DNA of 63,618 nt, counting the filler, from an uncultured Methanosarcinales archaeon (GTDB lineage: Archaea > Nanobdellota > Nanobdellia > Woesearchaeales > JACPBV01), in the NCBI GenBank assembly GCA_964492935.1. It is 7 parts of 7 records of this genome, joined end to end, with 100 filler letters (N's around TTAATTAATTAA, not from the genome) between each part and the next. Parts side by side here need not be neighbours in the genome. Positions count along the whole stretch, not along the records: positions 12,435 to 23,625 come from CAZBLF010000035.1; positions 23,726 to 32,472 come from CAZBLF010000037.1; positions 32,573 to 41,194 come from CAZBLF010000038.1; positions 41,295 to 48,818 come from CAZBLF010000039.1; positions 48,919 to 56,411 come from CAZBLF010000040.1; 2 more parts are not named here. One strand, given 5' to 3'. Positions 17,196-51,430 of this stretch are shown here, piece after piece. The notes beneath the pieces were generated by a model, which made no database searches, was not told the DNA's origin, and saw nothing but the letters and a program-made list of their open reading frames with translations. The translations under genes and the position numbers were made by a program. Each line of letters starts with the position of its first letter. The first letter of the stretch is position 1.

Positions 17196-17313
17196 CTGCT
17201 GACGGCTTCAAAACTCTTTCTCTACGAATCGATAGCTCTACGTCCCGTGGGGACAACCCCTGTGACGAGCCGATCCACGGAAAGAGAGAGTTTTGACTTT
17301 ATGCCGTTAGCAG
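17196..17313 (+). ncRNA. Structured intergenic element, copy A of a three-member family
   Basis: CTGCTGACGGC/GCCGTTAGCAG and TCAAAACTCTTTCT/AGAGAGAGTTTTGA stems (G-U pairs favour the + strand). Apex GCTC-TACG-T-CCCGTGGGGACAACCCC-TGTG-AC-GAGC. Confidence 0.7.
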
Positions 17314-18654
17314 CTATAGATTCGGTTTAGTAGAAGTCTTCACGAGATTGTCGAATTCCTTGTATGTGAGGATGTTTTTTTCTAGCACTAGTTGTTTGAG
17401 GTTTTTCTTTGTTTTTAATGACTCTTTAACGAGTTCTGCTACCTTATCGTAGCCTAATCTTGGATTGAGGATGGTTGCAAGACCTGCTGAGTGTTCTAGA
17501 TGGGATTGGCAGGTGTGTTTATTTGGGGTGATGCCGCGAATGCACTTTGCTGCGAGCATGTTGCTTGTTCTTGTAAGTATTTGGAGCATGTGGATGATAT
17601 TATTTGCTACGAGGGGCATGTGTGTGTTTAATTCTAGTTGACTTAGGGAATTTGCAAGTGTTATGGCATGGTCGAGGCCTTGGATTTGGATGCAGGCCAT
17701 GGCTGCTGCTTCACAGATGCTTGGATTGATCTTACCGGGCATGATTGAGCTTCCGGGTTCGACTGCAGGCAGATTAATCTCTCCGAATCCGGTGTTGGGT
17801 CCTGAAGAGAGTAAGCGTAAGTCGTTCGTTATTTTGAGGATGTCTGAAGCTGCGAGTTTGGTCATTGCACTTACTTCGGCAATATCCGTTAGAAACTGGG
17901 TTGCTTCGACGTTATTTACGGCAGGTTGGAACTTTGACTTGAGTTCACGGTTTAGTTCCTGGATGATTGTTTTTCTAAAGGCTTTTTTGGTGTTAACTGC
18001 GGTGCCGACAGCATTGCCACCTACGCCTAGTTCTAATAATGATTCTGAGGCTATTTGGAGACGTAGCTGTGCTTTCTCTATGGCTGCTGCATAGGCACCG
18101 AATTCTTGGCCTAGCGTGATGGGAACTGCATCCTGGAGATGGGTGCGGGCGCTTTTTGGAATATTTGAGAAGTTTTTTGCTTTCTGTGCTAGTGCCTGTT
18201 GTAATGTGGCGAGAGCTGTAGTGAGATGTAGTGTTTCTTGATAGGCTGCTATTCTTATTGCGGAAGGAAAGATGTTATTTGTGGATTGCCCACGATTTAC
18301 GTCGTCATTGGGATGGAGTTTTGCGAGATGAGCGATAACCTCATTCACATTCATATGGGTTGAGGTTCCGGAACCTGCCTGGAAGACGTCGATCTGAAAT
18401 TCTTTGTTGTGTTTGCCTTGAAGGATAGATTTTGTTGCTGCTAGGATGGCATTTGCTTTCTTTTTGTCAAGTGATTTGAGTTTGTAATTTGCTTTTGCGC
18501 ACGCTCTTTTGAGATGAACGATTGCGTAGATGAGTTCTCTCGGGAGGGCCTGTTGTGCTCCATTAAAGTTTTCTAGAGATCTGGCGGTGTGGATGCCATA
18601 GATTGCGTTAGGGGGTAGTTGTTTCTTTCCGAGGGAATCTCTTTCTGTTCTCAT
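17314..18654 (-). CDS. Class II fumarate hydratase / aspartate ammonia-lyase
   Basis: RTERDSLG, QAGSGTSTHMNVNE, RTHLQDA, signature GSSIMPGKINP. Confidence 0.9.
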   Translation of the reverse strand: MRTERDSLGKKQLPPNAIYGIHTARSLENFNGAQQALPRELIYAIVHLKRACAKANYKLKSLDKKKANAILAATKSILQGKHNKEFQIDVFQAGSGTSTHMNVNEVIAHLAKLHPNDDVNRGQSTNNIFPSAIRIAAYQETLHLTTALATLQQALAQKAKNFSNIPKSARTHLQDAVPITLGQEFGAYAAAIEKAQLRLQIASESLLELGVGGNAVGTAVNTKKAFRKTIIQELNRELKSKFQPAVNNVEATQFLTDIAEVSAMTKLAASDILKITNDLRLLSSGPNTGFGEINLPAVEPGSSIMPGKINPSICEAAAMACIQIQGLDHAITLANSLSQLELNTHMPLVANNIIHMLQILTRTSNMLAAKCIRGITPNKHTCQSHLEHSAGLATILNPRLGYDKVAELVKESLKTKKNLKQLVLEKNILTYKEFDNLVKTSTKPNL

Positions 18655-19016
18655 TGCTTTTTGTTTGGTTTATCCATTGCTACCTTGCGTACGATATTCT
18701 CAAGGCGTTTCTGGTTCTTTCTTACTAAAAGATAGGTATAGAAGATGGTTCCGATGAGAAACATAAACCCAAGGATGATGAAAAAGTCCATTGTCCGTGC
18801 CAGATTGAGGGTTTTGACCACGGGGTCGAGTAGACGTGGCATGATGGTGACGGCAAGAAAGGTAAACCATAGTACAATCCAAAAAGAGTATTCTTTGAGC
18901 GTTATCTCTTTGCGCTTGTAGTGGAGGAAGGTGTAATAGGCCATAAATGCTCCGAAGAAGCCTCCCAGTATTTGAATTCCTAGTAATGCTGCCATTATCT
19001 TTTGATCCTCCACCAC
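18651..19016 (-). CDS. DUF2304-family membrane protein
   Basis: Three TM helices and C-terminal LENIVRKVA. Located directly after a GT2 gene, which is typical for the family. Confidence 0.75.
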   Translation of the reverse strand: MVEDQKIMAALLGIQILGGFFGAFMAYYTFLHYKRKEITLKEYSFWIVLWFTFLAVTIMPRLLDPVVKTLNLARTMDFFIILGFMFLIGTIFYTYLLVRKNQKRLENIVRKVAMDKPNKKQ

Positions 19017-19642
19017 ATCAGATTAAGAACGATTTTGATGCCGTCGATAATGGTTGTTCCTTTGTAGCGGTCTGCGTAGACGGTTTCAATAGGTACTTCT
19101 CCAAAGGAAAGTTTATGTCGTCCGATATTTGCTATCATTTCTGATTCCATGCTGTAGTTTGTTGCATCCCAGCGTATTTTTTTGTAGGCTGTTGCTGTAA
19201 ATGCACGAAAGCCGCATTGCGTATCTTTAACATCGATACCGTAGAGGATTTTGGTCATGGTATTGATGACTCCATTTCCAAATCTCAGTACACTGGGCAT
19301 TGATTTTGATCGCTTTCTATACCCTAACACAACATCGTGGTTTTTAAGCGTTTGCAAAAATCTTGGAATATCTTGGGGATTGTGTTGGGTATCGGCATCT
19401 ATGACTACTATTTTAGTTGCTCCTTTTTTTATGGCGAAATCGCATCCCGTTCTGAGGGCTGCGCCTTTTCCTAAATTCGTTATATGGGTGAGCACGGTTG
19501 CATCGCTTGCTGCGGAGCCGGTGTTATCTTTGGATCCATCGTCAACCACTATAACGCTTCCAAATTTCTTTGCTTTGGTAACTACTCCATTAATGGTTGA
19601 TGACTCATTCTGTGCCGGAATAACGATGTAGGTGGATTCCAT
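18995..19642 (-). CDS. Glycosyltransferase family 2 (dolichol-phosphate sugar synthase-like)
   Basis: VIPAQNE, VVDDGSKD, NLGKGAA, DADTQH, DTQCGFRA. Confidence 0.92.
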   Translation of the reverse strand: MESTYIVIPAQNESSTINGVVTKAKKFGSVIVVDDGSKDNTGSAASDATVLTHITNLGKGAALRTGCDFAIKKGATKIVVIDADTQHNPQDIPRFLQTLKNHDVVLGYRKRSKSMPSVLRFGNGVINTMTKILYGIDVKDTQCGFRAFTATAYKKIRWDATNYSMESEMIANIGRHKLSFGEVPIETVYADRYKGTTIIDGIKIVLNLMWWRIKR

Positions 19643-19644
19643 GA

Positions 19645-22600
19645 TTATGCGGTAGCGGGTTGTGAAGTATTCGTATCTACTTCATTAGAAGGGGTATTTA
19701 TTACTTGTTGTTCTTCTCTCTGGGAGGTGTAGTATGGCACTTCATTTGTAGCGTTTCCGTCCCAGTTTACTTTCCAAACGATGATTCTGCCGCCAGTGAA
19801 ACTTGTTCTATCAGAGAATTTTTCGAAGTAGCTCGTGCCATGACCATTCATGTAGTAGAGTTTCGTAAAGAGTGCATTTGCGAGTTTTGGGTGTGCAATG
19901 ACTGCTCTGTAGCGGGAATCAGAGGTGGGGTAGAGTGTTAGGCTGATTCCGAGTTCGTTTTCATCATACTGTATGGTATCGATGGTACCATCTTCGCGTG
20001 CGATACTGATGCTGTTTGGAAACCTTGGGCCTTGAGGGGTGTTGACGCCAGCAGTTTGGAGTGTTGAGAGGTTAATATTCAGGCCGACTCCTTCTTGAAT
20101 GCTGCATGAGACGACTCCTCCCCCCTGATTTGAGCAGATGGATTCTCCTTGGTATGAGGGCCAGGGTGCAATCCACCTATTTGCCTCGGCGCTATCGGTG
20201 ATTGCCTGGATTTCGAAATAGGTATCTTCTGCTTGTTTTTGAGACATGTTGAATCGTTCTACCAGGTATGCACTGCTTGCTACAGGATCATTCTTGTATT
20301 CCTTTTTCTTGAGGGTGTTGTAGCGTAGAGCGCGCTCGAAATTCCAGGATCCGAAGTGAGCCCAGACGCCTCCTTTTCCGATCATATCGTGTGAGGTGAT
20401 AAAGTAATTTTCTGGAGGTGTGCAGTGTGAGTATTTCAAGACTTCATCGATTTGGGTGATGCCTGCATTCTCTAGGACTTTTGCTGCTTCAGCCTTATCT
20501 GTAAGTAGGATAATTTCTTTTACCACTTTGAGTGCATTTGGAATATCTTCAATTTCTTTATTAACGGTATCGAATGCCTTGTTTTGTCCACAGTCAAGCA
20601 TTCTGAGTGTGCCGCGAGCATAGTTTTCATCGTCGGTTAGTAGAACCGATCCAATCCAATGTGCGTTTGGAGTGTTTTGAGAGGTTCCATCGAAGGTGAC
20701 AGGTCTATTTCCAATCATTTTGAACCAATGGCCGAAGTCCCACCATGAATTAATGATTGCATTTTCATCTGCCTGAAGGTCAATCTGTTTTAGGGAGTCG
20801 TACCATGCATCATTCATTGAGGGTATTTCTTGACGGGAAACACTTTTTGCCCCTTGGATGGGTTGTCCAAAGAGGACTAGTAATAGGAAGATAACGACTA
20901 CTGCATTCACAAGATGTTTATTGAGGTGTAATCCTTTAGTCAGGAGTTCTGAGCTTTTTTTGTAGATGAAATTGACTGCTACTCCGGTGGCAAGAGCGAA
21001 TGCAGGTACTGCAACGAGTGTAAATCTGACTCCTTTAGTGCTTGCATACACGGTGGATGCGAACCAGAGTGTTAAAAGGAGTGATGCTTTGATGTCGATT
21101 CCTTTCTGCCGGGTTCGGATGATGTCGAAGAGCCAGAATGCGACTGGGACACCGGTTAGGATAATGAACATGATCTTTTGTGGCATGATTGCTAATAACA
21201 GGGCATACCAGATGGCTGATCCGATTGCAAGGTAGATCCCTCTTTTTGAGTGGCTTGTCTTTTTTAAGAGGCTCCAGGCTAATCCGGACAGGGCGATGAG
21301 GAACAGGAGTTTACTTCCCATCCCAATTTGGTTGATGACGCTGCTTAATGAGGCAGTATTTTGTTCGGCCACCGTGGTAAAGACATTGGGCCAGATGCTA
21401 TCGATGCCGACTTCCTTTAGTGTGATAAATGCTCTTGGTCCGATGAGGAATCCATCCATGAAGTTGCTGAATCCTGTGAAAAAAGAGGTGAAGATTGCTG
21501 AGAAGATGAGGAAGAGTCCTAGTGTGATTGGAGTTTCAAGAAATTCTTTATCTTTGATGAAGGAATCTATATTCTTGAGTTGATCGCGGTGCAGTAATAT
21601 GTAGTAGCCGATATATGCTACTGATGTAATGATGATGAAATTCATGATGTACCACCAGCCGCCCCACGCAAAGCTGAAGAGTCCTACGAAGAAGCCTGCT
21701 GCGAGTGTGTAGAGGATTATTTTCTTGTATTCTTTCGTTTCAAAGGCTTCTAGGAAGAGCCAGGTTACGATTAACGGTATGAGTACGTTGTACGCATCGG
21801 TATCGGCAAATCCGCCGGCAGTTCTTGTTAGTAATGCAGGATGAATTGCGAGAATCATCGCGGCAATGAATCCACCGAAATTTCCGGAGATGCGTCGTCC
21901 TATAAAGAAAATAGGGATGATGCTGAGTGCTATTAATAGGACGGGAGTGTAGAAGGCGGCCGTCATCAAGCCTATATCTTTATTGAAGAAGCGCATGAAT
22001 TTGAACAGAAATGCTTCGAAATAGGCATGGAATGCGTCTCGTGGAACGAATCGTCCTACGGGTGCGAACATGAATGTATCATAGGGAGCTTCTTTTCCTT
22101 GTTTATTTCTGAGTTCATCTCCTGGATGTCCGTTGTCAATGACGTTTTTTGCATGACGCATCCAAAAGTAAGGGTCAATAGCTAAGAGATAGGTCTGGCC
22201 GTTCTCATCCTGTAATCGAGATCTGAAATGATTGGCTGTTGCCTGTACTTGCGCTTCCAGTTGTGCTTTCTGTTCCTTCTGGAATTTTTCGAATTCGGTA
22301 TTGATGAGATTGTTCTTGTTGCTCTGCGGTAGATTAGGATACTGTTGATTAATTTGTGATTTAATTTGATCTTGGACTTGGTTGTAGACTGAGTCGCGGG
22401 CCCAGGTGTCTGCGATGGGCAGTTCTGCTGATGTTGAACGTAAACTTGAACTCATGAATACTGGGATGAGGATTAGTAGTAAGGCTAATAGTACCGTTTT
22501 ATGCGCAACTACGAAGCCGGTTATTTTTTTGGTGTCCACTCCGTCTTCATCGTCTTTTTCTTGTGAAAAGACTCCCTTTATTGATGATTTTATTTTTGAA

Positions 22601-23022
22601 AAGTCGAATGAGATTTCTTCGTCTTCTTTTTCGTCATCGGAGGCATCTTCTTTGTTTGAATGGTGTTCTCCAGGTTCTTCTGATTTCTTTGAGCTGAAGA
22701 TGTTCTTTATTTTTGAGAGGTCTAGGTTAATTTCTTCATCGTCCTCTTCATCAGTTTCTTCCCTTGAAGATTGTTCTTCTGCTATCTCATCCTTTTTTTC
22801 AGGTTCTTTTACTTCCTTCTGGATGTCAGGTTCGTGATGAGGTTCTGGTGAGTGGTGGGACTTTTCTTCTGAGGGTGCATCGGATGGTGTTTTTGGCTGA
22901 GTATTTTCTTCTTTGGTTTCTTCAGCTGGTTTTTCTTCTTTTGGTTTTTCTTTTTTACCGGAGAAGATATTCTTTATCTTAGAAAAATCAATGTTTATTT
23001 CGTCGTCTTCGTGTTCTTCCAT
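19645..23022 (-). CDS. aglB: Oligosaccharyltransferase AglB/STT3 with an acidic, repetitive N-terminal extension
   Basis: IDPYFW, RTAGGFADTD, TVAEQ, many TM helices and the WWDFGH motif. Confidence 0.93.
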   Translation of the reverse strand: MEEHEDDEINIDFSKIKNIFSGKKEKPKEEKPAEETKEENTQPKTPSDAPSEEKSHHSPEPHHEPDIQKEVKEPEKKDEIAEEQSSREETDEEDDEEINLDLSKIKNIFSSKKSEEPGEHHSNKEDASDDEKEDEEISFDFSKIKSSIKGVFSQEKDDEDGVDTKKITGFVVAHKTVLLALLLILIPVFMSSSLRSTSAELPIADTWARDSVYNQVQDQIKSQINQQYPNLPQSNKNNLINTEFEKFQKEQKAQLEAQVQATANHFRSRLQDENGQTYLLAIDPYFWMRHAKNVIDNGHPGDELRNKQGKEAPYDTFMFAPVGRFVPRDAFHAYFEAFLFKFMRFFNKDIGLMTAAFYTPVLLIALSIIPIFFIGRRISGNFGGFIAAMILAIHPALLTRTAGGFADTDAYNVLIPLIVTWLFLEAFETKEYKKIILYTLAAGFFVGLFSFAWGGWWYIMNFIIITSVAYIGYYILLHRDQLKNIDSFIKDKEFLETPITLGLFLIFSAIFTSFFTGFSNFMDGFLIGPRAFITLKEVGIDSIWPNVFTTVAEQNTASLSSVINQIGMGSKLLFLIALSGLAWSLLKKTSHSKRGIYLAIGSAIWYALLLAIMPQKIMFIILTGVPVAFWLFDIIRTRQKGIDIKASLLLTLWFASTVYASTKGVRFTLVAVPAFALATGVAVNFIYKKSSELLTKGLHLNKHLVNAVVVIFLLLVLFGQPIQGAKSVSRQEIPSMNDAWYDSLKQIDLQADENAIINSWWDFGHWFKMIGNRPVTFDGTSQNTPNAHWIGSVLLTDDENYARGTLRMLDCGQNKAFDTVNKEIEDIPNALKVVKEIILLTDKAEAAKVLENAGITQIDEVLKYSHCTPPENYFITSHDMIGKGGVWAHFGSWNFERALRYNTLKKKEYKNDPVASSAYLVERFNMSQKQAEDTYFEIQAITDSAEANRWIAPWPSYQGESICSNQGGGVVSCSIQEGVGLNINLSTLQTAGVNTPQGPRFPNSISIAREDGTIDTIQYDENELGISLTLYPTSDSRYRAVIAHPKLANALFTKLYYMNGHGTSYFEKFSDRTSFTGGRIIVWKVNWDGNATNEVPYYTSQREEQQVINTPSNEVDTNTSQPATA

Positions 23023-23104
23023 AGTAACTGTACTGTTTTCGTGAACTGTAGGTCTCTTAAAAAGGTTTCTATAATCACTATTTGTTGTTTATTTGTTATG
23101 CTAT

Positions 23105-23160
23105 AATGGTTATTATTATTAACCATTGAGTAATGGTTAAACTACATAATCTTTATATAT
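23105..23160. promoter_or_regulatory. Operator-like palindrome next to a TATA box, between divergent aglB and the Tat-motif gene
   Basis: Perfect TTAACCATT-N4-AATGGTTAA at 23119-23140, an extra AATGGTTA half-site at 23105-23112, and TTTATATA at 23152-23159. Confidence 0.5.
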
Positions 23161-23197
23161 TTGTTTTGATTCCTCAATGAATCATGGGGGATGGTAA

Positions 23198-23625
23198 ATG
23201 GCTACACTAGGTTCGCTAGTGCAGCATATTCGGGACAATACAACAGCAGTAGTGGGCGCTGCAGGAGATCGTTTTGGTCAGGGTGCATCGCAGGCTCGGG
23301 AGTATTTACTCAAGTGGATTGATGGTTTGGATGGTGATTCTGCTGATCCGGCCCCTTCAGTTTCTTCTTCAGTTGGTTTGAGCCGTAGGCAATTATTGGG
23401 TGTGATGGGTGCAGGTGCTGTTACGTTAACTCTTCCTGGATGTTTGTTAAGTTCTAAACAGGATGGGAGTGCTAGTGCGGCTGCAGGTCGCAATCATGAT
23501 TTTGCTAGGGATGGCGCGCTTCCGATTGATGAATATTTTGTTGAGCGTTTTAAGGATGATGCTCTTAATCTGAGTAAAAATGGAAATGTGGATGCAAGGG
23601 GGAATTTTTTTAGTAGATACGATGC
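23198..23625 (+). CDS. Hypothetical protein with an internal twin-arginine/lipobox motif (3' truncated)
   Basis: SRRQLLGVMGAGAVTLTLPGC starting near residue 62. The ORF runs into the linker. Confidence 0.65.
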
Positions 23626-23774
23626 NNNNNNNNNNNNNNNNNNNNNNNNNNNNNNNNNNNNNNNNNNNNTTAATTAATTAANNNNNNNNNNNNNNNNNNN
23701 NNNNNNNNNNNNNNNNNNNNNNNNNAAGTGATTACTTTGACGATTCCACTATGGCTTTAGCCTAGTGGTAGTTC

Positions 23775-23836
23775 AAAAAAAGAAAAAAAATGCCTTCATA
23801 CAAAAACAATTGGGGGTGGTTTCTAATGAAGGCATT
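23775..23836 (-). terminator. Putative hairpin plus U-tract terminator of ftsZ
   Basis: AATGCCTTCAT/ATGAAGGCATT inverted repeat (23789-23836), followed on the minus strand by a long T tract. Confidence 0.45.
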
Positions 23837-23869
23837 AGAACTTATCACCACAGACTTAAGGAGGTGAGC

Positions 23870-24943
23870 TTAAACCAGTTCAATGCCGAGCTCTTCCGAG
23901 ATCTGTTGGGCTTGTGGACTTGGTTGTGAATAGTCCATCTTTCCTAAGATCCAGGGGCTTTTTACACCGGTAATGATAGTCATTACGGTTACTTTGCCTT
24001 TTAGCTCTTCATCAATCCTCGCTCCCCAGATGACGTTTGCGTCAGGGTCTAGGGATTCGGTCACCAGGTCGCCGATTTTACTGATCTCATCTAAGGTCAG
24101 ATCGGGGCCACCTGATATGTGCAACAACGCTCCGGTTGCTCCTTTGTAGGAGATGTCCAGAAGTGGGTTGCTGAGTGCTCCTCGCACTGCTTCTTCCACT
24201 TTGTTGTTGGTATCTGAGGAACCTACACCGATTGCGGCTACTCCGCCATTCGTCATGATGGTCTTGACGTCTGCATAGTCAAGGTTCACTAGCGAAGGCA
24301 GTGCAATGGTTTCTACGATTCCTTTGATCATCGTTGAGACTAGCTCGTTTGCTACAGCAAATGCTTGCTGAATAGGTAGATTACCTGCAATTGCAACCAG
24401 TCTGTTGTTATCAATTACGATAACGGTGTCTGCAACTTGGCGTAGTTGTTGTAGGCCAAATTCAGCTTTATCTACACGTGCCCGTTCAATCTTGAACGGC
24501 ATGGTTACGGTTCCAATAACAATAGATCCGAGATCTTTTGCTACTTGTGCTACAATAGGTGCTGATCCGGTTCCGGTTCCGCCTCCCATTCCTGCACAGA
24601 CAAATACCATGTCTGAACCTTTGAGAACTTCCTTTATCTCTTGAAGCGATTCTTGTGCAGATTCTGCTCCCTTTTCAGGAAACCCACCACAGCCGAGGCC
24701 ACGTGTTATTGTTCTGCCTAATAGAATCTTTCTATCAGAGTTCGTCATGTCCAGGTGCTGTTTGTCAGAATTCGTTGCTATGATTTCTGCACCCTTGATT
24801 CCTTTGTCATACAGCCATCCGACCATATTACATCCTGCACCGCCAGCGCCGATTACTTTAATGTTGGCTTGTCCAACTTCACCTCCTACTTGTGCTTGTT
24901 GTTCTTCCGCCTTTTGCAAGGCATTGTTTACTAATATATCCAT
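23870..24943 (-). CDS. ftsZ: Cell division protein FtsZ
   Basis: [25 protein letters not shown]. Confidence 0.97.
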
Positions 24944-25260
24944 TTCACATCCCCCTGTGTCCTTTTTTTGTGGCTTTTAATATGCATTATATACTGGAAT
25001 ATATACTTCGGAGTACCGATGTCTTTATATTTCAGTTCCCTCACTAATGCTTTTAGAACTCAGTTTATTGCGCCAACGATGGACTGTAACAAGTATTAAC
25101 ACACACAAACAAAGATGATAAATGCTTTCGCCAAAAAGCAAAACGGTTTGATTAATTGAAGTTTTCGCCAAAAAACTTTTTCTTACTAATTTTTATAATT
25201 AAAACTGGTGGGAAGTAGTATATAAACATTTCTCAGAACTCTGTAGTAGTGAATATAGTG

Positions 25261-27318: not shown

Positions 27319-27351
27319 TTCTCTTCTTTGTGGGCGGTTCTTTAAAAACAG

Positions 27352-27993: not shown

Positions 27994-28055
27994 AGTGCTG
28001 CTTTGGGATTGGTGACTTATAAACCTTTTTATAGTATCAGGGAATAACTTGATTG

Positions 28056-32472: not shown

Positions 32473-32574
32473 NNNNNNNNNNNNNNNNNNNNNNNNNNNN
32501 NNNNNNNNNNNNNNNNTTAATTAATTAANNNNNNNNNNNNNNNNNNNNNNNNNNNNNNNNNNNNNNNNNNNNTC

Positions 32575-41194: not shown

Positions 41195-41307
41195 NNNNNN
41201 NNNNNNNNNNNNNNNNNNNNNNNNNNNNNNNNNNNNNNTTAATTAATTAANNNNNNNNNNNNNNNNNNNNNNNNNNNNNNNNNNNNNNNNNNNNAAAAAG
41301 AAAAAAG

Positions 41308-41442: not shown

Positions 41443-41454
41443 CTTATCACCTCA

Positions 41455-41589: not shown

Positions 41590-41655
41590 AGTATCACCTT
41601 CTTTTTGGAATACTACCATACTGAGAAATCTACTATATAAATGTTTCCCTCCCTC

Positions 41656-41789
41656 GTATGTGCATAGCACCTTCGAAATTCTTGCTCTTGACTTCTGAAG
41701 GTGCTGCGTCCCCGGATGGGGCAACCCCGCGCAACGCACTTAATTCTGAGGTATCAATGAATTTCGACCTGGTGATGCTATGCACATAC
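41656..41789 (+). ncRNA. Structured intergenic element, copy B (14-bp perfect terminal IR, flanking direct repeat; MITE-like)
   Basis: GTATGTGCATAGCA/TGCTATGCACATAC and TCGAAATTC/GAATTTCGA stems. Apex GTGC-TGCGT-CC-CCGGATGGGGCAACCCC-GCGCA-AC-GCAC. CCCTCCCTCG lies at both 41647-41656 and 41789-41798. Confidence 0.72.
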
Positions 41790-41839
41790 CCTCCCTCGAC
41801 ACACAACAAGTTTAAATACTGTAAGATTGAAATCAAGTT

Positions 41840-42070
41840 ATGGTCGATATCTCAGCAGCAACACCTGTCATCGGACCCTGGGTAACATTAGTCGAACAAC
41901 TCGTAGGCACCGTGAAAATTCTAGTAGGAGGATTCTTCGGCCTTTATGTAGTAATGTTCGTCCACCGTATCATCAGTCACAAGAAACTTTCAAAAAGATT
42001 CGAAAAACTCTTCCACGAAATTGAGTGGATAAAAAAAGAGCTGAAACTCAAAAAGAAATCAAAATCCTAA
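41840..42070 (+). CDS. Small membrane protein with a basic C-terminal tail
   Basis: 76 aa, one TM helix, TTTAAATA upstream. Confidence 0.65.
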   Translation: MVDISAATPVIGPWVTLVEQLVGTVKILVGGFFGLYVVMFVHRIISHKKLSKRFEKLFHEIEWIKKELKLKKKSKS

Positions 42071-42649: not shown

Positions 42650-42751
42650 CTCAACAATCCTGAAATTCAGTCATTTATATATGTTTCTGCAACAGTCAGC
42701 TTTATAAATGAAACCTCACTTACACACCTTAATCAAAACAAGGTGATGAAC

Positions 42752-44371
42752 ATGAGTAAAGACGTACAACCAATATTTATCCTACCCGAAAATACACAAC
42801 GAACCGTAGGCAAGAATGCCCAGCGCACTAATATTATGGCTGCGAAGATGGTTGCCGAAACCGTTCGTACTACTCTAGGTCCTAAAGGCATGGACAAAAT
42901 GATTGTCGATTCACTAGGAGACATCACCGTAACCAATGACGGCGTCACCATTCTCGAAGAAATTCAAATTGAACATCCTTCAGCAAAAATGATTGTTGAA
43001 GTGGCAAAAACCCAGGAAAACGAAGTCGGCGATGGAACCACCACCGCAGTCGTATTAGCAGGAGAACTTCTAAAGAATGCAGAAGAACTGCTTGACAAAG
43101 ATGTCCATCCCACCGTTATCGCTCGTGGCTACCGATTAGCAGAAGCGAAAGTACAGAACATCCTAGAGTCAATTGCAGAATCCATCAACGTTGACGATAA
43201 TAGCATCCTATCAAAAATCTCCATGACCGCAATGACGGGCAAAGGAGCAGAATCCTCAAAGGAACTCTTAAGCGATATCGCCGTAAAAGCAGTTAAATTA
43301 GTCATGGAACAAGATAACGGAATCTCAATTGATAAAGAAAACATCAAACTAGAAAAGAAAGTCGGTGGCGCTGTACATGACACCGAATTAATCGAAGGCA
43401 TCGTACTAGACAAGGAACGCGTAAATTCCAATATGCCCAGACACGTTGAAAAAGCAAAAATCGCATTAATCGATTCAGCTATCGAAATAAAAAACACCGA
43501 GATGGATGCAAAAATCCAAATTACGGAACCCTCCCAGGTACAAACCTTTATCGATCAAGAGGAACAGATGTTACGTGACAAGGTAGAAAAAATTACCGCA
43601 TCCGGTGCAAATGTATTAATCTGCCAGAAAGGCATTGACGATCTCGCACAACATTTCTTTGCAAAACACGGCGTCTTTGCAGTTCGCAGAGCAAAGCAAT
43701 CCGATATGCAGGCACTAGCACGAGCATCCGGAGCACGCATCGTAAACAATCTTGACGATCTCACAAGTGATGACGTAGGTTTTGCAGGCGTTGTAGAAGA
43801 AGTCAAAGTAGGCGACGAAAACATGACCTACATCCGAGATTGTAAAAATCCAAAATCCGTTACCATTCTTATTCGTGGTGGAACCGAGCACGTCGTTGAC
43901 GAAGTTAAAAGAGCAATGGAAGACGCTCTAGGTGATATCGCAGCAGCCATCAAGAACGGAAAAGTAGTTGCAGGAGCAGGCGCAACCGAAATCGAGCTTG
44001 CAAAACAACTCAAATCATATGCAGACAGCCTTTCCGGCCGAGAGCAACTAGCAGTCCACGCATTCGCAACCGCTATTGAAATTCTACCTACAACCCTAGC
44101 AGAAAACGCAGGCCTAGATCCTATTGACGTACTAGCAGAATTAAAAAGCGCTCACGACAAGAAGAAAAAATGGGCAGGAATCAATGTCTTTACCGGCAAA
44201 GTCATGGACGCCTGGAAAGAAGGCGTAATTGAACCTGCACGCATCAAAACCCAGGCTTTCAGTTCCGCAACCGAAGTCGCAGTAATGATTCTAAGAATTG
44301 ACGACGTTATCGCAGGAGCATCCGCTCCAGCACCCCAAATGCCCCCTCCAGGAATGGATATGGGCATGTAG
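42752..44371 (+). CDS. ths: Thermosome (group II chaperonin) subunit
   Basis: [48 protein letters not shown] before the ATG at 42752. Confidence 0.97.
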
Positions 44372-44465
44372 GATTAATTCTATAAAATCAAAAGATTTAT
44401 ATACGGATTTGCTCAAAGTAATTCTAGTATCGTAGTTAGTGCAATAAAAAAAAGAGCGTGGTAGA

Positions 44466-45224
44466 ATGCCGAACGAAGAAGGCTATGAAATAATGCCTTA
44501 CAAGGAGATAGTCCAACTCAAGAAACAAATTACCGATCTGCAAAAACAGGTAGGCGATCCCAATTCTAAGGACCTCTTAGTTTCCATGGATAAATTAACG
44601 AAGACCATGGACAGCATGCTCAAGTTATTTGCCCAAGCAGCCGATGAAATGAAGCTAGAGGAAAAGACAGAATCCGAATTAACTGAAAAGATCGAGCCAT
44701 TAATGGAAAAGATAAGGGGCATGGAGCATCAAAACAAAACAATCGCCGAAGGAATGGTAGCAATTGCAGACATGGTCAACGGTCCTGGACATTTGCAAAA
44801 AAAGATCCATCACCCACAATCACATCCCAATCCAGAAGATCCGTTTAAATTTGATTTCCCCGGTATGAAAGATAATCTACCTCCACTAGAACCTCCGAAA
44901 GGAGCTCCCATGCATCCTCCACCTACGATGGAACCTCACGCTAAACCACACGCTCCACCCGAACATCCTCCCCATCATCAACCTAAAGGAATGCCACCCC
45001 CACCAGGAATGCCGCCTGCACCCGGAGCACCTCCAGGACTTCCACCTATGCCACCTATGCCTAATCAACCTAAAGGAATGCCTCCACTGCCCGGCTTACC
45101 ACCGATGCCAGGAGCACCACCACCCGGAATGCCTCCACCACCAGGAGCACCTCCAGGACTACCTCCTATGCCTGGACCTACAGAGCCGAAGAAGAAAGGC
45201 TTCATGGGCATGTTTAAGAAGTAA
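44466..45224 (+). CDS. Coiled-coil plus polyproline protein with a C-terminal amphipathic tail
   Basis: N-terminal heptad region, QPKGMPP..PGAPPGLPPMP repeats, C-terminal KKKGFMGMFKK. Confidence 0.75.
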   Translation: MPNEEGYEIMPYKEIVQLKKQITDLQKQVGDPNSKDLLVSMDKLTKTMDSMLKLFAQAADEMKLEEKTESELTEKIEPLMEKIRGMEHQNKTIAEGMVAIADMVNGPGHLQKKIHHPQSHPNPEDPFKFDFPGMKDNLPPLEPPKGAPMHPPPTMEPHAKPHAPPEHPPHHQPKGMPPPPGMPPAPGAPPGLPPMPPMPNQPKGMPPLPGLPPMPGAPPPGMPPPPGAPPGLPPMPGPTEPKKKGFMGMFKK

Positions 45225-45226
45225 CG

Positions 45227-45865
45227 ATGGACAGTCATCCAGCACAACATAAAGAGAATTCTCCTCATCCAGCACAACATAAGGGTACTGCTCCAGTGCA
45301 CCATCAAAAGATGCATCCCAACCCGCATAACGAACCCATCAGTCCAGATCGCTTTAAACGCTACGTAAAGCACATCTGCTTTATGGCAAAGAAACATCAA
45401 CAACGCGATCAATCTCATGACGAGCTAGAGGATAAAATAAAAGAACTCAAGAAAGTAGCCTCATCGAAAAAAAACATCAATAAAGAGATGAACGAACTCA
45501 AGCAAAAGATGGATACCGTTATCCTACACGAAAAGAAGATTAGTACGCCCCATCAAGATCCCAGTCAACAGCAAGAGATGGTACAACAAGCAGCCAAAAC
45601 CGTTCTAGAAATGAAAAAGCACATGGGCCACCTCCAAAAACAAGTAGATGCCCACCTCAAAGACCAGAAACAATTGCAAGAAAGCAACAAAGATCTCAAA
45701 GCAATCATCCCCCTACCAGAGAAAGATCAAAAAATTTCTGAGATGAAACAACATCTCTCAAAGCTAGAAGAAATCTATGAACTCTACAAAGATTCTGGTT
45801 CTAATAACCTAGACCGAATTAAACTCAAAATAGAAAGTCTCAGAGCAAGATTGGCAGTCGCCTAA
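45227..45865 (+). CDS. Coiled-coil protein with a His/Pro-rich N-terminus
   Basis: HPAQHK repeated twice, then K/E/Q-rich helices. Starts 2 nt after the previous gene. Confidence 0.7.
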   Translation: MDSHPAQHKENSPHPAQHKGTAPVHHQKMHPNPHNEPISPDRFKRYVKHICFMAKKHQQRDQSHDELEDKIKELKKVASSKKNINKEMNELKQKMDTVILHEKKISTPHQDPSQQQEMVQQAAKTVLEMKKHMGHLQKQVDAHLKDQKQLQESNKDLKAIIPLPEKDQKISEMKQHLSKLEEIYELYKDSGSNNLDRIKLKIESLRARLAVA

Positions 45866-46047
45866 AGATCTCTTCCCATAACCGTATTGCGTTGATTCTC
45901 CTTAGCACGTTTACAAGCATCCTTAATCAATCGAATAACCTTTTCCTGTAACCGATCAGCAAAATCACCTGCAACGAACAACGGAGTCTCATTAGCCTTA
46001 GCATACTCTCTAATGTTACTTCGAACAACCAATGTTTTCCCCGTCAT
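45862..46047 (-). CDS. Small histone-fold protein (non-HMf type, short alpha3)
   Basis: LVVRSNIREY..VAGDFADRL..ACKRAKENQRNTVMGRDL, with the histone RxTV...D motif. Confidence 0.85.
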   Translation of the reverse strand: MTGKTLVVRSNIREYAKANETPLFVAGDFADRLQEKVIRLIKDACKRAKENQRNTVMGRDL

Positions 46048-46125
46048 ACCTCCACTTCAGCAGTCCAAGTTTTTATACCTTTGCATCTACGAGCATTTTT
46101 AAAGAAAGATTCATTCTACTAAGGT

Positions 46126-46347
46126 ATGGGAGAAGAAGAACCAGTAGTGCCTAAAAAAGAATATTCTACTTTAGAGTCAATCGCAGACACGGCAGTAAGC
46201 ATTGGAGCAGGAGCATTGTTTAATTATCTTGTTCCTGGAGCATCCTTCCTGCATAGTCTTACAATGTCCGCTGCATGGGGAGCTGGGGGATTAATAAGCG
46301 ATGCCATCGGAGGGAGAAAGTCCGCTCAAGCAATGGGGGAAAGCTAG
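46126..46347 (+). CDS. Small Gly/Ala-rich hydrophobic protein
   Basis: 73-aa ORF with two weakly hydrophobic helices. Confidence 0.5.
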   Translation: MGEEEPVVPKKEYSTLESIADTAVSIGAGALFNYLVPGASFLHSLTMSAAWGAGGLISDAIGGRKSAQAMGES

Positions 46348-46396
46348 GGAACTATATGTTAGGATTCATGGGCGGAGACTACCTTCTTCCCGCGCT

Positions 46397-48070
46397 CTAT
46401 CGATGAGCAAACCAGAACGTCAACTTACTTTTACTCTTTTTATCCAATCTACAGAACCCAAATCGAACTAACTGCACCACAGCTCCTTCTTTCAAATCAG
46501 AAAGATGCTTTTCTCCAAGACCAGTAACCAAAGAACCGTCCGGCATCATAACCTCAACAGCAATATTTCCCTCTTTAGGCAACCAATGAATAATTTGCTT
46601 GCCAGTTGCCTTATACTCATCATAACTATCCGAATCAAAAATCAGCTGGCCATCCTTCTGTCTGACATTTAAACAATCCATCAACCGATACAGTTTATTT
46701 TCTGCAAAATTATCGAAATCCTCTTTCGCAATGTTAAAAGTATCTCCAACCGAGAATTTCCGACCCCCTTTCTGAGCATCTGGATGCAAATCGAGAGCAA
46801 TGTCTTTTTTATGAACACCAGCAATCCGAATCTCGACCGGATCCTGAACAAAGAAGTAACGATGCGCTACCGGATCAATAATATCTTTATTATACGCGTC
46901 AATCGTCTTAAAGAATTCATCTTTAGAAACCTTCTTGTCACTCAAACTAACGCCCACATCAAACGCATATCTCAAAAAAGTCTCAGCCTGATAACCGCGT
47001 CTGCGCAAAGCAAGTAAAAACGGAATCCGAATATCATCCCAGCCTGTATACGTGCCATCCTCTATCAACGGTCGAGTCTTCGAACAACTCACCGCCATTC
47101 CCGTAAAGTTAATTCTTCCAACAAACAATGTCTCAGGAGACTTCTTACCAAGATATTCGTAAATGTATTTTTGTCTCAACGCATTGTCGTGATGATCCTT
47201 AGCGCGAATAATATGAGTAACCTTACTTTCGATGTCATCAACCGTCACCGACATATTCATCAATGGCCACACCCGATATTTAGTTCCCTGCCGCGCATGC
47301 TTACTTTCATTAATTCTAAACAACGGAAAGTCCCGCATAGCAGGATTCTTATGTTCAATATCAGTCCTCAATCGAACAACCGCCTCGCCCATCTTATAGG
47401 TAGTAAACATCGCATCCCAGCGCGACTTCTGTTCAACCAACATCCTACACGCACAAGCCTCCTTAGCGCGAATCTTTTCTCTAAATTCTTCAGGATCACA
47501 CGTACAGACGTACACCTTTTCCAATTTCAACAACTTCTCCATGTAAGAATAATACAATTCCATACGCTCAGACTGAATCAGAACGTCTTTTATCTTCCCG
47601 TCCGTCAACCAAGCCGCATCCTCCGGAAGTAAATCATAAGCAGGCTCGTAAATATTGTCCGGGTTCGTATCCGCAATGCGTAAAATTAATTTTCCTTTGT
47701 ATTCCTTACAGTACAACGCATTTAATCCAAGAACATACGCATGCCCAATGTGCATCGGTCCACTCGGACTAGGCTCAAAGCGCATCACCACTTTCTTAGC
47801 ACCCTTCAATTTAGTTAGCGTCTTTTTCTTAACAACTTTCTTCTTCTTCAACAAATCAGGAGCAAGATTCTCAAGTTCTAATTTCTGTGCCTCTAGCGAC
47901 AACGAGTTAACATCAGCAACAATCTTCCCGATCTGCTTCCCCAGGGTAGCCATCTCACTCTTCAAAGCCGGCTTCTCCGCAAGCAACTTCCCAACTATCG
48001 CACCCGGATTAGCCTTTCCATTAAACTTCAAAGCATTCTGAAGTGCATACTTACGAATAGTATCATCCAT
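46397..48070 (-). CDS. gltX: Glutamyl-tRNA synthetase, archaeal type
   Basis: YALQNA, RFEPSPSGPMHIGH, THIIRAKDH, GWDDIR, QLVRFGFCRLD. Confidence 0.96.
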   Translation of the reverse strand: MDDTIRKYALQNALKFNGKANPGAIVGKLLAEKPALKSEMATLGKQIGKIVADVNSLSLEAQKLELENLAPDLLKKKKVVKKKTLTKLKGAKKVVMRFEPSPSGPMHIGHAYVLGLNALYCKEYKGKLILRIADTNPDNIYEPAYDLLPEDAAWLTDGKIKDVLIQSERMELYYSYMEKLLKLEKVYVCTCDPEEFREKIRAKEACACRMLVEQKSRWDAMFTTYKMGEAVVRLRTDIEHKNPAMRDFPLFRINESKHARQGTKYRVWPLMNMSVTVDDIESKVTHIIRAKDHHDNALRQKYIYEYLGKKSPETLFVGRINFTGMAVSCSKTRPLIEDGTYTGWDDIRIPFLLALRRRGYQAETFLRYAFDVGVSLSDKKVSKDEFFKTIDAYNKDIIDPVAHRYFFVQDPVEIRIAGVHKKDIALDLHPDAQKGGRKFSVGDTFNIAKEDFDNFAENKLYRLMDCLNVRQKDGQLIFDSDSYDEYKATGKQIIHWLPKEGNIAVEVMMPDGSLVTGLGEKHLSDLKEGAVVQLVRFGFCRLDKKSKSKLTFWFAHR

Positions 48071-48209
48071 AATCCCTTTGCATCAGAAAGACCTTATAAA
48101 CTTTTACCTTGAACCAAGTAAATAATCCACCCCCTAACTATCTCCATTTGATTTCTCTGAGAAAATAAAAGTAAACAATCATGTGATTGTTTAGTAAAGC
48201 TTATATTAC

Positions 48210-48818
48210 ATGTTTCCAAACAATATCAACATGCTAAACATTAAGGACAAACTAGCTCAGGATAAAGCAGACATTAAGAAATCTTGGCTGGATATTCTTA
48301 AACGTATTAAAGAAGACCTTGCTTTTGTTTGGTCAAAAGAGGTCATAGAAGACTTAGAAGTAATTGAAGATGATGTAAAGAAAATAGATCATCTCTTCAA
48401 GCATTACTATTCTGGCAAGAGGATTCACACTGACGTAGAGCGACTACTGTCTCATATTAAAAGAAAAGATTCCACAAAAGCCTGGGTGCGTGAGCTGTAC
48501 AAGGAACTGAAGCAAGTAGTCGATGACACCCGCACAGTCCAAGAGGAGAAAAGCACAAGAGAGGGCATGGAAATCCTGAAAAGGAATGGATTTCCTATCG
48601 AGAAATACTCTGAAGCTGCAAATTTCCTTGCCTACCATCCAGAGGACCTGCTCGAACTGGAACGGTTCGAGAAGAAACTCCCAGGAGGCATTTTAAGTTT
48701 TTACCTTCCTATGTTAGTAAAAATAGGAGTAATCACCAAACAATCCTGTTCCGGAATAATCAAGAATCTATCCAAACTTGCGGATGCAACCGGAAAATAT
48801 ACTTATGTTGCATTGCAG
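48210..48818 (+). CDS. Hypothetical helical protein (3' truncated)
   Basis: Long ORF that runs into the linker. Confidence 0.6.
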
Positions 48819-48918
48819 NNNNNNNNNNNNNNNNNNNNNNNNNNNNNNNNNNNNNNNNNNNNTTAATTAATTAANNNNNNNNNNNNNNNNNNNNNNNNNN
48901 NNNNNNNNNNNNNNNNNN

Positions 48919-49431
48919 ATAGCGGCTGAGGTGGTGTGGGACGCCTATTTGAAGGGGTTTATCGAGGGTAAAGTGATTGCTGACCTTGGATGTGGGCAGG
49001 GTATCCTGGGAATAGGGTGTATGTTGCTTGGAGCTGCGAAAGTGCATTTTGTGGATGTAGATCCGGAAGTATTGGAAGCTGCACGTAAAACGGTAGCATT
49101 AGTAGAAAGTGAGTGTTCTAGTGCGTTTTTCGAGGGTGATGTTAGTGCCTTCAAGATTGAGGTGGATACGGTGATTATGAATCCTCCGTTCGGAGTACAA
49201 AGTGAGCATTCAGATAGGGAGTTTTTGGATGTTGCATGTCGTCTATCGTCGGTAGTGTTCAGTTTTCATAAGACTTCTACTGCTGCTTTCGTCGAACAGT
49301 ATGCTCGCAATCTTGGTTTTGATTTGTCTGAACGGTATAATTTCTCTTTTCCCTTGAAGTCTGCAATGGCTCACCACCGACGGAACGTGCAGCATATTGA
49401 GGTTAGTTGTTTTCGTTTTGAAAAATCTTAA
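48919..49431 (+). CDS. METTL5-family RNA methyltransferase (5' truncated)
   Basis: ADLGCGQGILGIG, VDVD, MNPPFG, HSDREFL. Confidence 0.88.
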   Translation: MAAEVVWDAYLKGFIEGKVIADLGCGQGILGIGCMLLGAAKVHFVDVDPEVLEAARKTVALVESECSSAFFEGDVSAFKIEVDTVIMNPPFGVQSEHSDREFLDVACRLSSVVFSFHKTSTAAFVEQYARNLGFDLSERYNFSFPLKSAMAHHRRNVQHIEVSCFRFEKS

Positions 49432-49516
49432 TGGGTTTATCGTCGGTAGATGTTGTTTTTGAGAAGAGAGTGATTTCTTGGGTCTGACTTTTATTCATAG
49501 TAACCTTTTTAAGTAG

Positions 49517-49807
49517 ATGGATTATCCTAAGGCTATGGAAGTAGCTATCGTCGAGGAAAGTAAAAATAAACTCATCTTTGAAGTCGATGAGAACGTTGGT
49601 TTTCTAAACGCTGTTAAGACAGAATTGCTTAATGATAAGCAGGTTAAGATTGCGACATACTTTGTGAAGCATCCTCTCGTAGGTAAGCCTCGGATGATTA
49701 TTGAGACTGATGGTGCAGATCCTAAGAAGGCTCTTGCATCTGCTACATCACGATTGAAGAAAGAAAACGATTCTTTTGCAGCTAGTGTTAAGAAAGCTCT
49801 TAAGTAA
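49517..49807 (+). CDS. rpoL: DNA-directed RNA polymerase subunit L (Rpo11)
   Basis: LIFEV..GFLNAVKTELL..VKIATYFVKHPL, IIETDG.DPKKAL. The start may instead be the ATG at 49535. Confidence 0.88.
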   Translation: MDYPKAMEVAIVEESKNKLIFEVDENVGFLNAVKTELLNDKQVKIATYFVKHPLVGKPRMIIETDGADPKKALASATSRLKKENDSFAASVKKALK

Positions 49808-49981
49808 AAAAATACCTTCTCCCACTTCTTACTGAATAAGTTCTATTGTTCGGTATTTTAGACGTCAAAGTCACCCTTTAGATTGGCGACTTTGAAGTAA
49901 CTAAATTCTCTTGTTTTAGACGTTCTAAAGCTCTAATTTGAGTTCCGTAACCTATAAATATATGGTGCCTAACAGAAGAAT

Positions 49982-50542
49982 ATGGCCTATATTCGTGTTA
50001 AGAAGATTCGGACTAAGAAAGGGAGCGTGTACCAATATGCATACCTTGTTGAGAATCGATATCGTAAACGGAAGGGTGGTGCTCGGCAAAAGGTGTTGGC
50101 CTATTTAGGAAAAGTGTATACTTTTGCTGTTGATTCTCGGTTATCATTTGAGGTTCCTGAGGAGGTAGATGCGGCTGCTTTTGTTGAGCAGTTTGGGTAC
50201 AAGGGCGTGGTCAAAAAGCTGGCAGGATTTGAATTGTTGAGGCATGGTTTTGCTTTTTCGGATGGATCTTATTCCCAGGATGGGATTGACATTACCGTCG
50301 GTGATTCTGGGATTATGTTTGGGAATGAGGCTGGGAATGACAAAGTGGTGCTTGCGTTTAATGAGGGTTTTTTGTGTAAGAAAACGTATCTTGATTTGTT
50401 GAAATTTACTGCGGAGAGTGATGATCCGCATGATGTAGGAGTTGCTTTTGGGAACGCGGTTTTAGAAGCGGGCATTGGCATTCCAAAGAATGTTTTTGTT
50501 GCTTTGTTTCAGAAAGTTTCTGGGTTAGAACTTGACCACTAG
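49982..50542 (+). CDS. Hypothetical protein with an IS1634-transposase-like N-terminal basic domain and no evident DDE core
   Basis: MAYIRVKKI..YQYAYLVEN..ARQKVLAYLGK. Only 186 aa. Confidence 0.6.
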   Translation: MAYIRVKKIRTKKGSVYQYAYLVENRYRKRKGGARQKVLAYLGKVYTFAVDSRLSFEVPEEVDAAAFVEQFGYKGVVKKLAGFELLRHGFAFSDGSYSQDGIDITVGDSGIMFGNEAGNDKVVLAFNEGFLCKKTYLDLLKFTAESDDPHDVGVAFGNAVLEAGIGIPKNVFVALFQKVSGLELDH

Positions 50543-50572
50543 ATATAAAAGTAGGCTGAGACTTCTTGGAGT

Positions 50573-51250
50573 ATGGAAAACGTGCCGCGACATGTTGCTG
50601 TCATTCTAGATGGTAATCGAAGATATGCCCAGGAAAATGGGATGCCTAAACTTGAGGGTCATCGCAAGGGTATTGAAAAGATTGGTGAGATGTTGCAGTG
50701 GTGTATGGATTCCGGTGTTCGCGAGCTTACGTTATACTGTTTGAGTACCGAGAATTTTGATCGGGATCAGAAGGAGGTTGATTATTTGTTCAAGTTGTTG
50801 CGAGATAAAATTAAATCGTTTTCTTCTGACAAGCAGATTCATGATAACAAGGTTAGAATTAAGGTAGTTGGAAGATTATCTCTGTTTCCGGATGATATTC
50901 GTGGGGAGATGGAGAAGGTGATGGGGGAGACTGCTCCCTATACTGATTATACTCTGAATCTGGCGATGGCGTATGGTTCTCGTGCTGAAATTGTGGATGC
51001 GGTGAAGAATTTAGTTGAGTCGGGAGAGGAGATTACTGAAGATGCTCTCGGTGACCGTCTGTATGTTACTTCGGATGTGGATCTTCTTATTAGGCCGGGT
51101 GGTGAGAAGCGAATTAGTAACTTTTTGTTGTGGCAGAACTCATATAGTGAGATTATTTGGGTGGATGCGTTATGGCCTGCTTTTTCTAAGGAAGATTTTG
51201 ATGGTTGTTTGTCGGAATTTAAGAATAGACAGCGAAGATATGGAAAATGA
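50573..51250 (+). CDS. uppS: cis-prenyltransferase (undecaprenyl/polyprenyl diphosphate synthase)
   Basis: HVAVILDGNRRYA, STENF, DLLIRPGGEKRISNFLLWQ, RQRRYG. Confidence 0.95.
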   Translation: MENVPRHVAVILDGNRRYAQENGMPKLEGHRKGIEKIGEMLQWCMDSGVRELTLYCLSTENFDRDQKEVDYLFKLLRDKIKSFSSDKQIHDNKVRIKVVGRLSLFPDDIRGEMEKVMGETAPYTDYTLNLAMAYGSRAEIVDAVKNLVESGEEITEDALGDRLYVTSDVDLLIRPGGEKRISNFLLWQNSYSEIIWVDALWPAFSKEDFDGCLSEFKNRQRRYGK

Positions 51251-51323
51251 TTCCTTCTCTGTGATTACAAAGTTATATATAGATGCTTCATGAAAAAAAG
51301 ATTGTTGTAGATGAGGTATTATA

Positions 51324-51430
51324 AGCACCTTCGAAATCTTACGGTATCATCATAAGGCTCTGTGGCCCGATGGCACAACCCCTACGACGAGCCGGACCTT
51401 GGTTCGCAAGGATTTCGACTGGAGGGTGCT
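51324..51430 (+). ncRNA. Structured element, copy C, immediately upstream of the recJ-like gene
   Basis: AGCACCT/GGGTGCT and TCGAAATCTT/AGGATTTCGA stems. Apex GGCTC-TGTG-G-CCCGATGGCACAACCCC-TACG-AC-GAGCC. Confidence 0.7.

Follow-up and report, generated by a model that had tools for sequence, protein, structure and literature searches.

Three hairpin elements, which we call A, B and C, lie in a 63,618-nucleotide stretch of DNA (the window) that joins, by N spacers, seven contigs of a 57-contig, 1.15-Mb genome bin of a DPANN archaeon (GCA_964492935.1, deposited as an uncultured Methanosarcinales archaeon and placed by GTDB in the Woesearchaeales). Very probably, these hairpins belong to a family of miniature transposable elements with inverted repeats (MITEs) that lands at a fixed spot just upstream of promoters, and are not RNA genes. 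An earlier note on this DNA had offered two readings, a structured mobile repeat or a new class of noncoding RNA. The former is right because the elements have transposon-type terminal inverted repeats, 8–9-bp target duplications, many copies including nine identical ones of B, ends in common with transposase-bearing insertion sequences (ISs) and an empty site in a congener; the latter has found no positive support. MITEs are an ordinary kind of element; in this family the promoter-proximal target, which is precise, is apparently undescribed in archaea, and the core is unusually conserved.

Elements A, B and C occupy separate contigs, can be aligned with one another and each fold as a long rod. 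The family was collected first with a regular expression, next with a profile in nhmmer and finally with a covariance model (R1) derived from 23 non-identical copies. A, B and C match R1 over its full length with 94.8, 102.6 and 98.0 bits, respectively, which establishes that the three elements exist and are homologous. The same model finds 31 copies in the 1.15-Mb genome and others in Woesearchaeota relatives, as the earlier note had predicted. The core of B occurs nine times with zero differences. All nine of these copies have the same inverted repeat, starting with GTATGTGCATAGC and ending with GCTATGCACATAC, which defines a 134-bp element, and all nine lie between the two halves of a perfect 8-bp direct repeat whose sequence changes from site to site. 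Shared ends combined with site-specific 8-bp repeats mark DNA transposition of the cut-and-paste or copy-and-paste kind. End repeats with an 8–9-bp duplication (at most one mismatch) were recovered automatically for 15 of the 31 copies in this genome and for 20 of 40 copies fetched from relatives, and the remaining copies look like older ones.

The family has the other properties of MITEs as well. Its members are noncoding and 118–164 bp long without insertions (up to 459 bp with nested inserts in the relative G006), and the hairpin takes up the room that a transposase would need. They possess terminal inverted repeats, their target-site duplications differ among copies, and their ends (GTATGTGCATAG and GGCTC-type) are common to autonomous elements that encode a transposase. 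Additionally, the sites of A and C are unoccupied in G001, a genome of the same genus. In two metagenome runs the 134-bp B sequence forms a repeat contig of its own, with a depth of 136 vs ~12 for the flank in one run (~11x) and 228 vs ~31–36 in the other (~7x). The loose ends of this contig fall exactly at 41656 and 41789 and lead to other flanks, one of which is absent from the bin.

Comparison with G001 reveals what an unoccupied site looks like. In this congener the flanks of A align at 78–81% identity and abut, and the 124 nt holding A (17191–17314) are missing. The empty site consists, in order, of a TATA box, 6 nt and an octamer containing the stop codon of the fumarase gene. In the genome studied here, the G001-type octamer is found in decayed form on both sides of A; therefore, the fumarase kept its stop codon and the glycosyltransferase kept its promoter. 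At the C locus, G001 has no element at the position of C and carries another family member further upstream, the 8-bp duplication of which (L253:1284–1291 and 1419–1426) contains the stop codon of the upstream gene. Thus, in two independent insertions, A and the G001 copy at the C locus, the upstream gene keeps its end because the duplicated octamer holds its stop codon.

Full-length R1 matches were obtained in 20 of the 60 relatives searched, with the best 58 candidates scored in many genomes. Within the same family, 11 of 13 genomes were positive, including G005 and G013 (9 of 11 without those two), as were 9 of 47 genomes from other families of the order. A 27-nt apical pattern searched over all species genomes occurs in at least 123 stretches. 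The 80 titles listed for it are all archaeal metagenome-assembled or single-amplified genomes (Woesearchaeota, Nanoarchaeota, Nanobdellota, Nanoarchaeia or 'archaeon'), plus three labelled Methanosarcinales.

To locate insertions relative to promoters, we used the upstream profile of 1035 open reading frames (ORFs), in which the TATA box lies at −30 to −23 and an A-rich TFB (transcription factor B) recognition element (BRE) at −35 to −33 from the ATG, indicating that most genes are leaderless. The ATG of the outward-facing gene is 40–44 bp from the element end in 13 of the 31 copies, most often exactly 44 bp, vs 2.8% of intergenic positions at which a gene would be 40–44 bp away (binomial P about 7e-13). 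This distance is the sum of the duplication (8), the BRE (6), the TATA box (8) and a further 22 bp. With a promoter matrix built from −36 to −23, 17 of the 20 well-bounded copies here have an outward-pointing BRE/TATA match whose start is 8 or 9 nt from the end, vs a null of 6.7% (P about 1e-17). Over five genomes the corresponding figure is 30 of 57 copies (P about 2e-20), and 47 of 57 have a match at offsets 5–12. By eye, a TATA-like octamer is found 6–7 nt outside the duplication in 16 of 17 GGCTC-type copies of G006 and G011. The nine B copies, which are recent since they are identical, all have their match at offset 8, including those with 100–460 bp of free flank. On statistical grounds, the target of integration is the DNA just upstream of the core promoter (BRE/TATA). 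Two other IS-like repeats break the assembly, one at the ends of contigs C2, C7, C15, C26 and C37 and the other at those of C19, C26, C41, C44, C46 and C49. A promoter match at offset 5–12 was seen at 1 of 5 and 1 of 6 of these ends, a comparison that bears on whether promoters are a host-wide hot spot or an aim of this family but that was made on few ends, with one end type of each repeat visible.

The ends of the MITEs point to two kinds of transposase. The first 12–13 bases of the B end (GTATGTGCATAG) recur at four contig ends, each followed by one of two different sequences up to the break, 54 bp in all; these stubs are the two ends of one repeat that the assembler did not cross. Both stub types match a single contig of the relative G002 (85% and 79% identity), on which an element of ~1.55 kb with the same ends contains one ORF of 442 amino acids encoding an IS66-family transposase (PF03050, 1.5e-39; NF033517, 6.3e-76, above the cut-off). 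Ends in the IS66 family begin GTAA. The MITEs resemble the single-ORF type of IS66 in the NF033517 match above cut-off of the protein encoded by the complete relative of the stub element, in the 8-bp duplications and in the GTA ends; unlike IS66 elements, they have just the 12–13 terminal bases in common with them and an unrelated interior. To our knowledge, promoter targeting is not a property of IS66. Duplications of 8 bp have been reported for this family (PMC6778807). At C20:20781–20987 of this genome, a B copy and the end of a full-length IS66-type element form a cluster beside a contig break, with 18 bp between them.

A second class of ends begins GGCTC and is associated with duplications of 9 bp in this genome and 9–11 bp in G006. 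The terminal 14 bases of this class are common to stubs at four G006 contig ends. In another relative, G091, a GGCTC-type end that is 79% identical over 81 nt belongs to a ~0.9-kb element with an IS5-family DDE ORF (PF01609, 1.2e-19); because this ORF covers just part of the profile, it scores 111 bits against the NCBIfam IS5 model, below the cut-off of 140. That one end suggests an IS5-type link for the GGCTC class. The IS903 group of IS5 makes 9-bp duplications, and the GGCTC class resembles this group and its MITEs in that its ends and its 9-bp-class duplications are associated with an IS5-family DDE ORF in G091. The core is present in all 17 GGCTC-ended elements fetched from G006 and G011, nested inserts being found in some of them, and an inner stem of this class is also seen in GTA-ended copies; for these reasons, the GGCTC class may have arisen when a GTA-type element became nested within an IS5-type MITE. 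Promoter matches beside the full-length elements are suggestive only. The C56 stub of the IS66-type element has a strong match at offset 6 with an ATG 41 bp away, while the other three stubs are weak or blank, and the G091 IS5-type copy is preceded by a TATA-like octamer, 6 nt and then ~10 nt before the element end.

From these terminal sequences we infer that IS66- and IS5-type enzymes move the MITEs. GTA-ended copies (B, and probably A and C) would be moved in trans by an IS66-family transposase, giving 8-bp duplications, and GGCTC-ended copies by an IS5-family transposase, giving 9–11-bp duplications. The duplicated octamer ends 6 bp from the TATA box, corresponding to −44 to −37 from the ATG of leaderless genes. 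Such an insertion would leave the promoter intact, and the duplicated octamer would often carry the stop codon of the upstream gene, so that both neighbours would survive in a genome that is ~90% coding. The targeting cue is most likely promoter DNA shaped or occupied by the TATA-binding protein (TBP) and TFB, or the BRE/TATA sequence itself.

The same core is present inside copies with very different ends (GTATGTGC, GTAACTGC, GGCTCAGTAG and others in relatives). It starts from a TTCRAAAY/RTTTYGA helix with an asymmetric bulge on the 3′ side, continues through a variable middle and is capped by an apical domain with a small CCCC-loop-GGGG hairpin followed by a C-rich run. Much of this agrees with the earlier note, including the TTCRAAA/TTTYGAC helix, the 3′ bulge, the inner helix, the C-rich apical segment and the swap of GCTC/GAGC for GTGC/GCAC in the outer apical helix. 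An AC bulge that had been called invariant is present in only one of two apical variants, the other being a continuous GCTGACA/TGTCAGC helix. In 75 distinct copies from several genomes, 90.9% of cells are paired vs 37–43% when the partners are slid, both sides have changed in 31 of 34 pairs and the observed values were reached by 0 of 500 shuffles, though these figures overstate the pairing and lean toward structure, as the copies are related and their alignment was fitted to the model. On the + strand the rods of A (z −5.6) and B (z −7.2) are far more stable than shuffles and that of C is not (z −0.9). The minus-strand z values against dinucleotide shuffles are −6.4 for A, −3.1 for B and −3.1 for C. 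The reported preference of G-U pairs for the + strand exists in 61 representatives (235 vs 167, Wilcoxon p 0.002) but is weak, the + strand being more stable in just 33 of the 61 (mean energies −44.4 kcal/mol for + and −43.3 kcal/mol for −). Transcription from neighbouring genes enters the element 11 times in the + sense vs 12 times in the − sense, by our count.

Selection for pairing probably keeps the core. Because both strands fold alike, the core most likely either acts at the DNA level, where it could join the two ends for the transposase, or blocks read-through in whichever orientation it lies; we reject a trans-acting RNA gene as its function. By analogy with systems discussed below, the archaeal pre-initiation complex (TBP/TFB on BRE/TATA) might guide integration with the core as a portable docking module, a proposal that we consider doubtful and quite unlikely to hold. 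It is raised here because the core is the sole part common to elements that have two unrelated transposases and land at the same base pair.

No known RNA family was matched by Rfam 15 in the window at gathering score (0 matches). At E ≤ 1, six family loci gave nothing inside the element, and the sole row, CrcZ (E 0.16), lies outside it and is a chance match. ARAGORN found 0 transfer RNA (tRNA) or transfer-messenger RNA genes in the window. Readings as a tRNA-like, H/ACA, C/D, K-turn or bulge-helix-bulge element were examined by eye, and the conserved positions fit none of them. In the apical motif (e.g. 41707–41728), a C-run, a loop, a G-run and 3–4 nt are followed by a second C-run. Of these two C-runs, the first covaries with the G-run and the second tends to mirror the first; no pairing scheme accounted for the second. 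A mutual-information scan for an alternative hairpin or triple helix in this CCCC..GGGG..CCCC motif was dominated by the two apical variants. Five copies (C4:32586–32745, C4:54408–54571, C25:14903–15060, C12:29307–29465 and C6:33497–33655) have an extra apical-loop hairpin of ~35 nt (GCGAG..CTCGC type). Since it is found in copies of different end classes, this insert must be old, unless it is mobile itself.

In favour of the hairpins being independent genes for a new trans-acting structured RNA, with incidental flanking repeats, are the strongly conserved pairing and its compensatory changes, a conserved apical segment that is not palindromic and the weak + strand excess of G-U pairs. We regard this as extremely improbable, given the transposon ends and distinct 8-bp duplications in 9 of 9 B copies, the empty site in the congener, strands that fold about equally and orientations balanced (11 vs 12) relative to neighbouring transcription. 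Furthermore, the adjacent TATA boxes face outward to neighbouring genes with an ATG at 44 bp, and the promoter-like matches seen inside 36 of 75 copies are, by our estimate, no more than chance for so many positions. A MITE whose core has been put to host use in cis, between the end of one gene and the promoter of the next, is a different matter. As an RNA or DNA structure serving as an insulator, a terminator or a stabiliser of the 3′ end of the upstream mRNA, it would explain why the core is conserved across genera. Such a role is consistent with the typical layout (the upstream stop codon 0–16 bp from one end, the BRE/TATA of the next gene at the other), with retention of the core in 20 of 60 relatives, some of them from other families of the order, with the frequency of compensatory changes and with strand-independent folding, which suits a device needed in either orientation. 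Archaeal termination relies on T-runs, however, and a run of five T or A is found in just 18 of 75 copies; moreover, the identical, recent B copies show the pattern before host selection could act. Host use is therefore unlikely in our view, though it is not far-fetched.

Promoter adjacency might also be produced without targeting, by purifying selection in a compact genome in which the survivors lie between a stop codon and the next BRE. By a rough map, coding sequence makes up ~90% of the genome and intergenic regions have a median of 76 bp, and stop codons are often 0–10 bp from the other end of the element. Nevertheless, B copies on C4 and C23 that have 100–460 bp on either side are still exactly at the BRE, as are copies on C14, C31 and C1 with 16–34 bp of flank, and all nine identical B copies share offset 8. 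The 6-bp gap would not be a selective edge, because the duplication would restore the BRE even after a closer cut. We consider selection by itself a very unlikely source of the pattern.

Several observations weigh against a promoter-targeted MITE family moved by these enzymes. A joint across the empty B site was found in none of the contigs of four metagenome DNA runs, and perfect target duplications are absent from A and C. What connects the GTA-ended copies to mobilisation in trans by an IS66-type enzyme is their 12–13 common terminal bases; the 8-bp duplication is present, but a search of this genome bin for the interior of the IS66-type element, including the transposase gene, found only the 54-bp ends at contig breaks. 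Both C and the G001 copy at its locus, which is 22 nt from the TATA box, are off the canonical promoter position. The spacing tests used gene maps that are rough ORF calls, and the promoter matrix was trained on this genome and applied also to relatives. Finally, conservation of the core across end classes with 31 of 34 compensatory pairs is more than is usual for MITEs, and the modest + strand G-U excess leaves room for a role at the RNA level.

As in other prokaryotic MITEs, the copies described here are short, noncoding, numerous and mostly intergenic, with terminal inverted repeats, target-site duplications and the ends of autonomous ISs. They differ in having one core with at least two end classes and two transposase families, and in an insertion point fixed to the base pair relative to the promoter. 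A census of archaeal MITEs places 'a Woesearchaea genome' among the MITE-densest archaea, with 105 MITEs/Mb (PMC11602168); the text of that paper available to us gives counts only and does not describe the family, which may be listed in its supplementary sequences.

Insertion at a fixed position beside gene starts has precedents in other domains. Ty3 of yeast and TRE5-A of Dictyostelium integrate at such a position guided by TBP/TFIIIB, and archaeal TFB is a relative of Brf1, a subunit of TFIIIB. The elements described here may work likewise; unlike them, Ty3 and TRE5-A are retrotransposons and act at RNA polymerase III (Pol III) genes. In bacteria, the portions of PMC3942029 available describe TnGBS, ISLre2 and ISKra4-group elements that insert 15–17 bp before the −35 box and avoid gene disruption, and elements with symmetric ends that insert in both orientations. 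Our family resembles these DDE transposons in its fixed distance upstream of the core promoter and in the occurrence of both orientations. In contrast, as far as that text goes, TnGBS, ISLre2 and ISKra4-group elements use Mutator-like transposases and sigma-A promoters, where IS66-/IS5-type enzymes and the archaeal BRE/TATA would be involved here. No Mutator-like (p-MULT) transposase was found, making the present elements an analogue, not a member, of the TnGBS/ISLre2 kind. The same text states that the archaeal ISH6 prefers an AT-rich octamer and 'might' favour promoters (PMC3942029). A literature search found no description of transposons aimed at the archaeal BRE/TATA, nor of this hairpin family.

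These findings remove one candidate new RNA class. RNA-motif screens of DPANN genomes will keep refinding these hairpins, which should be masked as mobile DNA. The findings also show how a transposon can persist in a 1-Mb, ~90% coding genome, by insertion where an 8-bp duplication spares both the upstream stop codon and the downstream promoter. If targeting reads TBP/TFB-bound DNA, the family would be an archaeal counterpart of eukaryotic Pol III-directed integration and of bacterial TnGBS, and its insertion sites would provide a base-precise promoter map in uncultivated archaea. Should the docking-module proposal be true, the core would serve as a homing device that does not depend on the transposase, and archaea would have their first case of transposition guided by the promoter complex.

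End repeats and duplications leave the limits that had been given for B unchanged and revise those of A and C to the approximate values listed with the other features in Table 1.

Table 1. Coordinates of the three elements and adjoining features in the window
Feature	Position	Strand	Remarks
Element A, MITE copy of the GTAACTGC end class	17192..17310	+	right limit +/-3; model match 17191-17313; left end repeat starts at 17192
Decayed target duplication of A, left copy CTGTTATG	17184..17191	.	compared with the single-copy target TTCTTAT in G001
Decayed target duplication of A, right copy CAGCTAT	about 17311-17317	.	holds the fumarase stop codon, 17314-17316
TATA box (17170-17177) and 6-nt BRE position (17178-17183) of the glycosyltransferase gene	17170..17183	-	matrix offset 8, score 9.0
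Element B, 134-bp MITE with 13-nt terminal repeats beginning GTATGTGC	41656..41789	+	one of 9 copies with identical core
Target-site duplication of B, CCTCCCTC	left 41648..41655, right 41790-41797	.	perfect 8-bp direct repeat
TATA-like octamer (41634-41641) and 6 nt (41642-41647), directly outside the B duplication	41634..41647	-	matrix offset 8, score 12.3
Element C, older copy, approximate limits	51307..51438	+	model match 51314-51435; RecJ-like ATG at 51446
N runs	10998-11097, 12335-12434, 23626-23725, 32473-32572, 41195-41294, 48819-48918, 56412-56511		distances across them are meaningless

The neighbouring genes had been named correctly as those of a family 9 glycosyltransferase, a class II fumarase and a DHH/DHHA1 RecJ-like protein. 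The glycosyltransferase gene is leaderless, with its ATG at 17147 on the minus strand, 44 bp from the end of A. Element C sits in the 5′ leader of the RecJ-like gene directly before the ATG, a position atypical for the family, and AGATTGT occurs on both of its flanks (51299–51305 and 51439–51445).

Two minor observations concern other parts of the genome. When introns were allowed, ARAGORN reported tRNAs whose introns would measure 1063 and 1316 nt, together with a 'tRNA-Pyl' and a 'tRNA-Stop' (C4:3226–4386, C18:10423–11830, C1:48915–49056 and C46:4683–4779), which are probably artefacts or tRNA genes interrupted by inserts. Additionally, a second family of repeats, ~100 nt long and with CACTTGCCA at both its start and its end, is present at C3:9794–9892, C6:5618–5722, C27:9756–9860, C57:84–182 and C42:6079–6195. 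A TATA-like box lies within about 4–11 nt after four of these five copies, and the family could represent either a further element of the promoter-adjacent kind or an upstream control region that several genes share.

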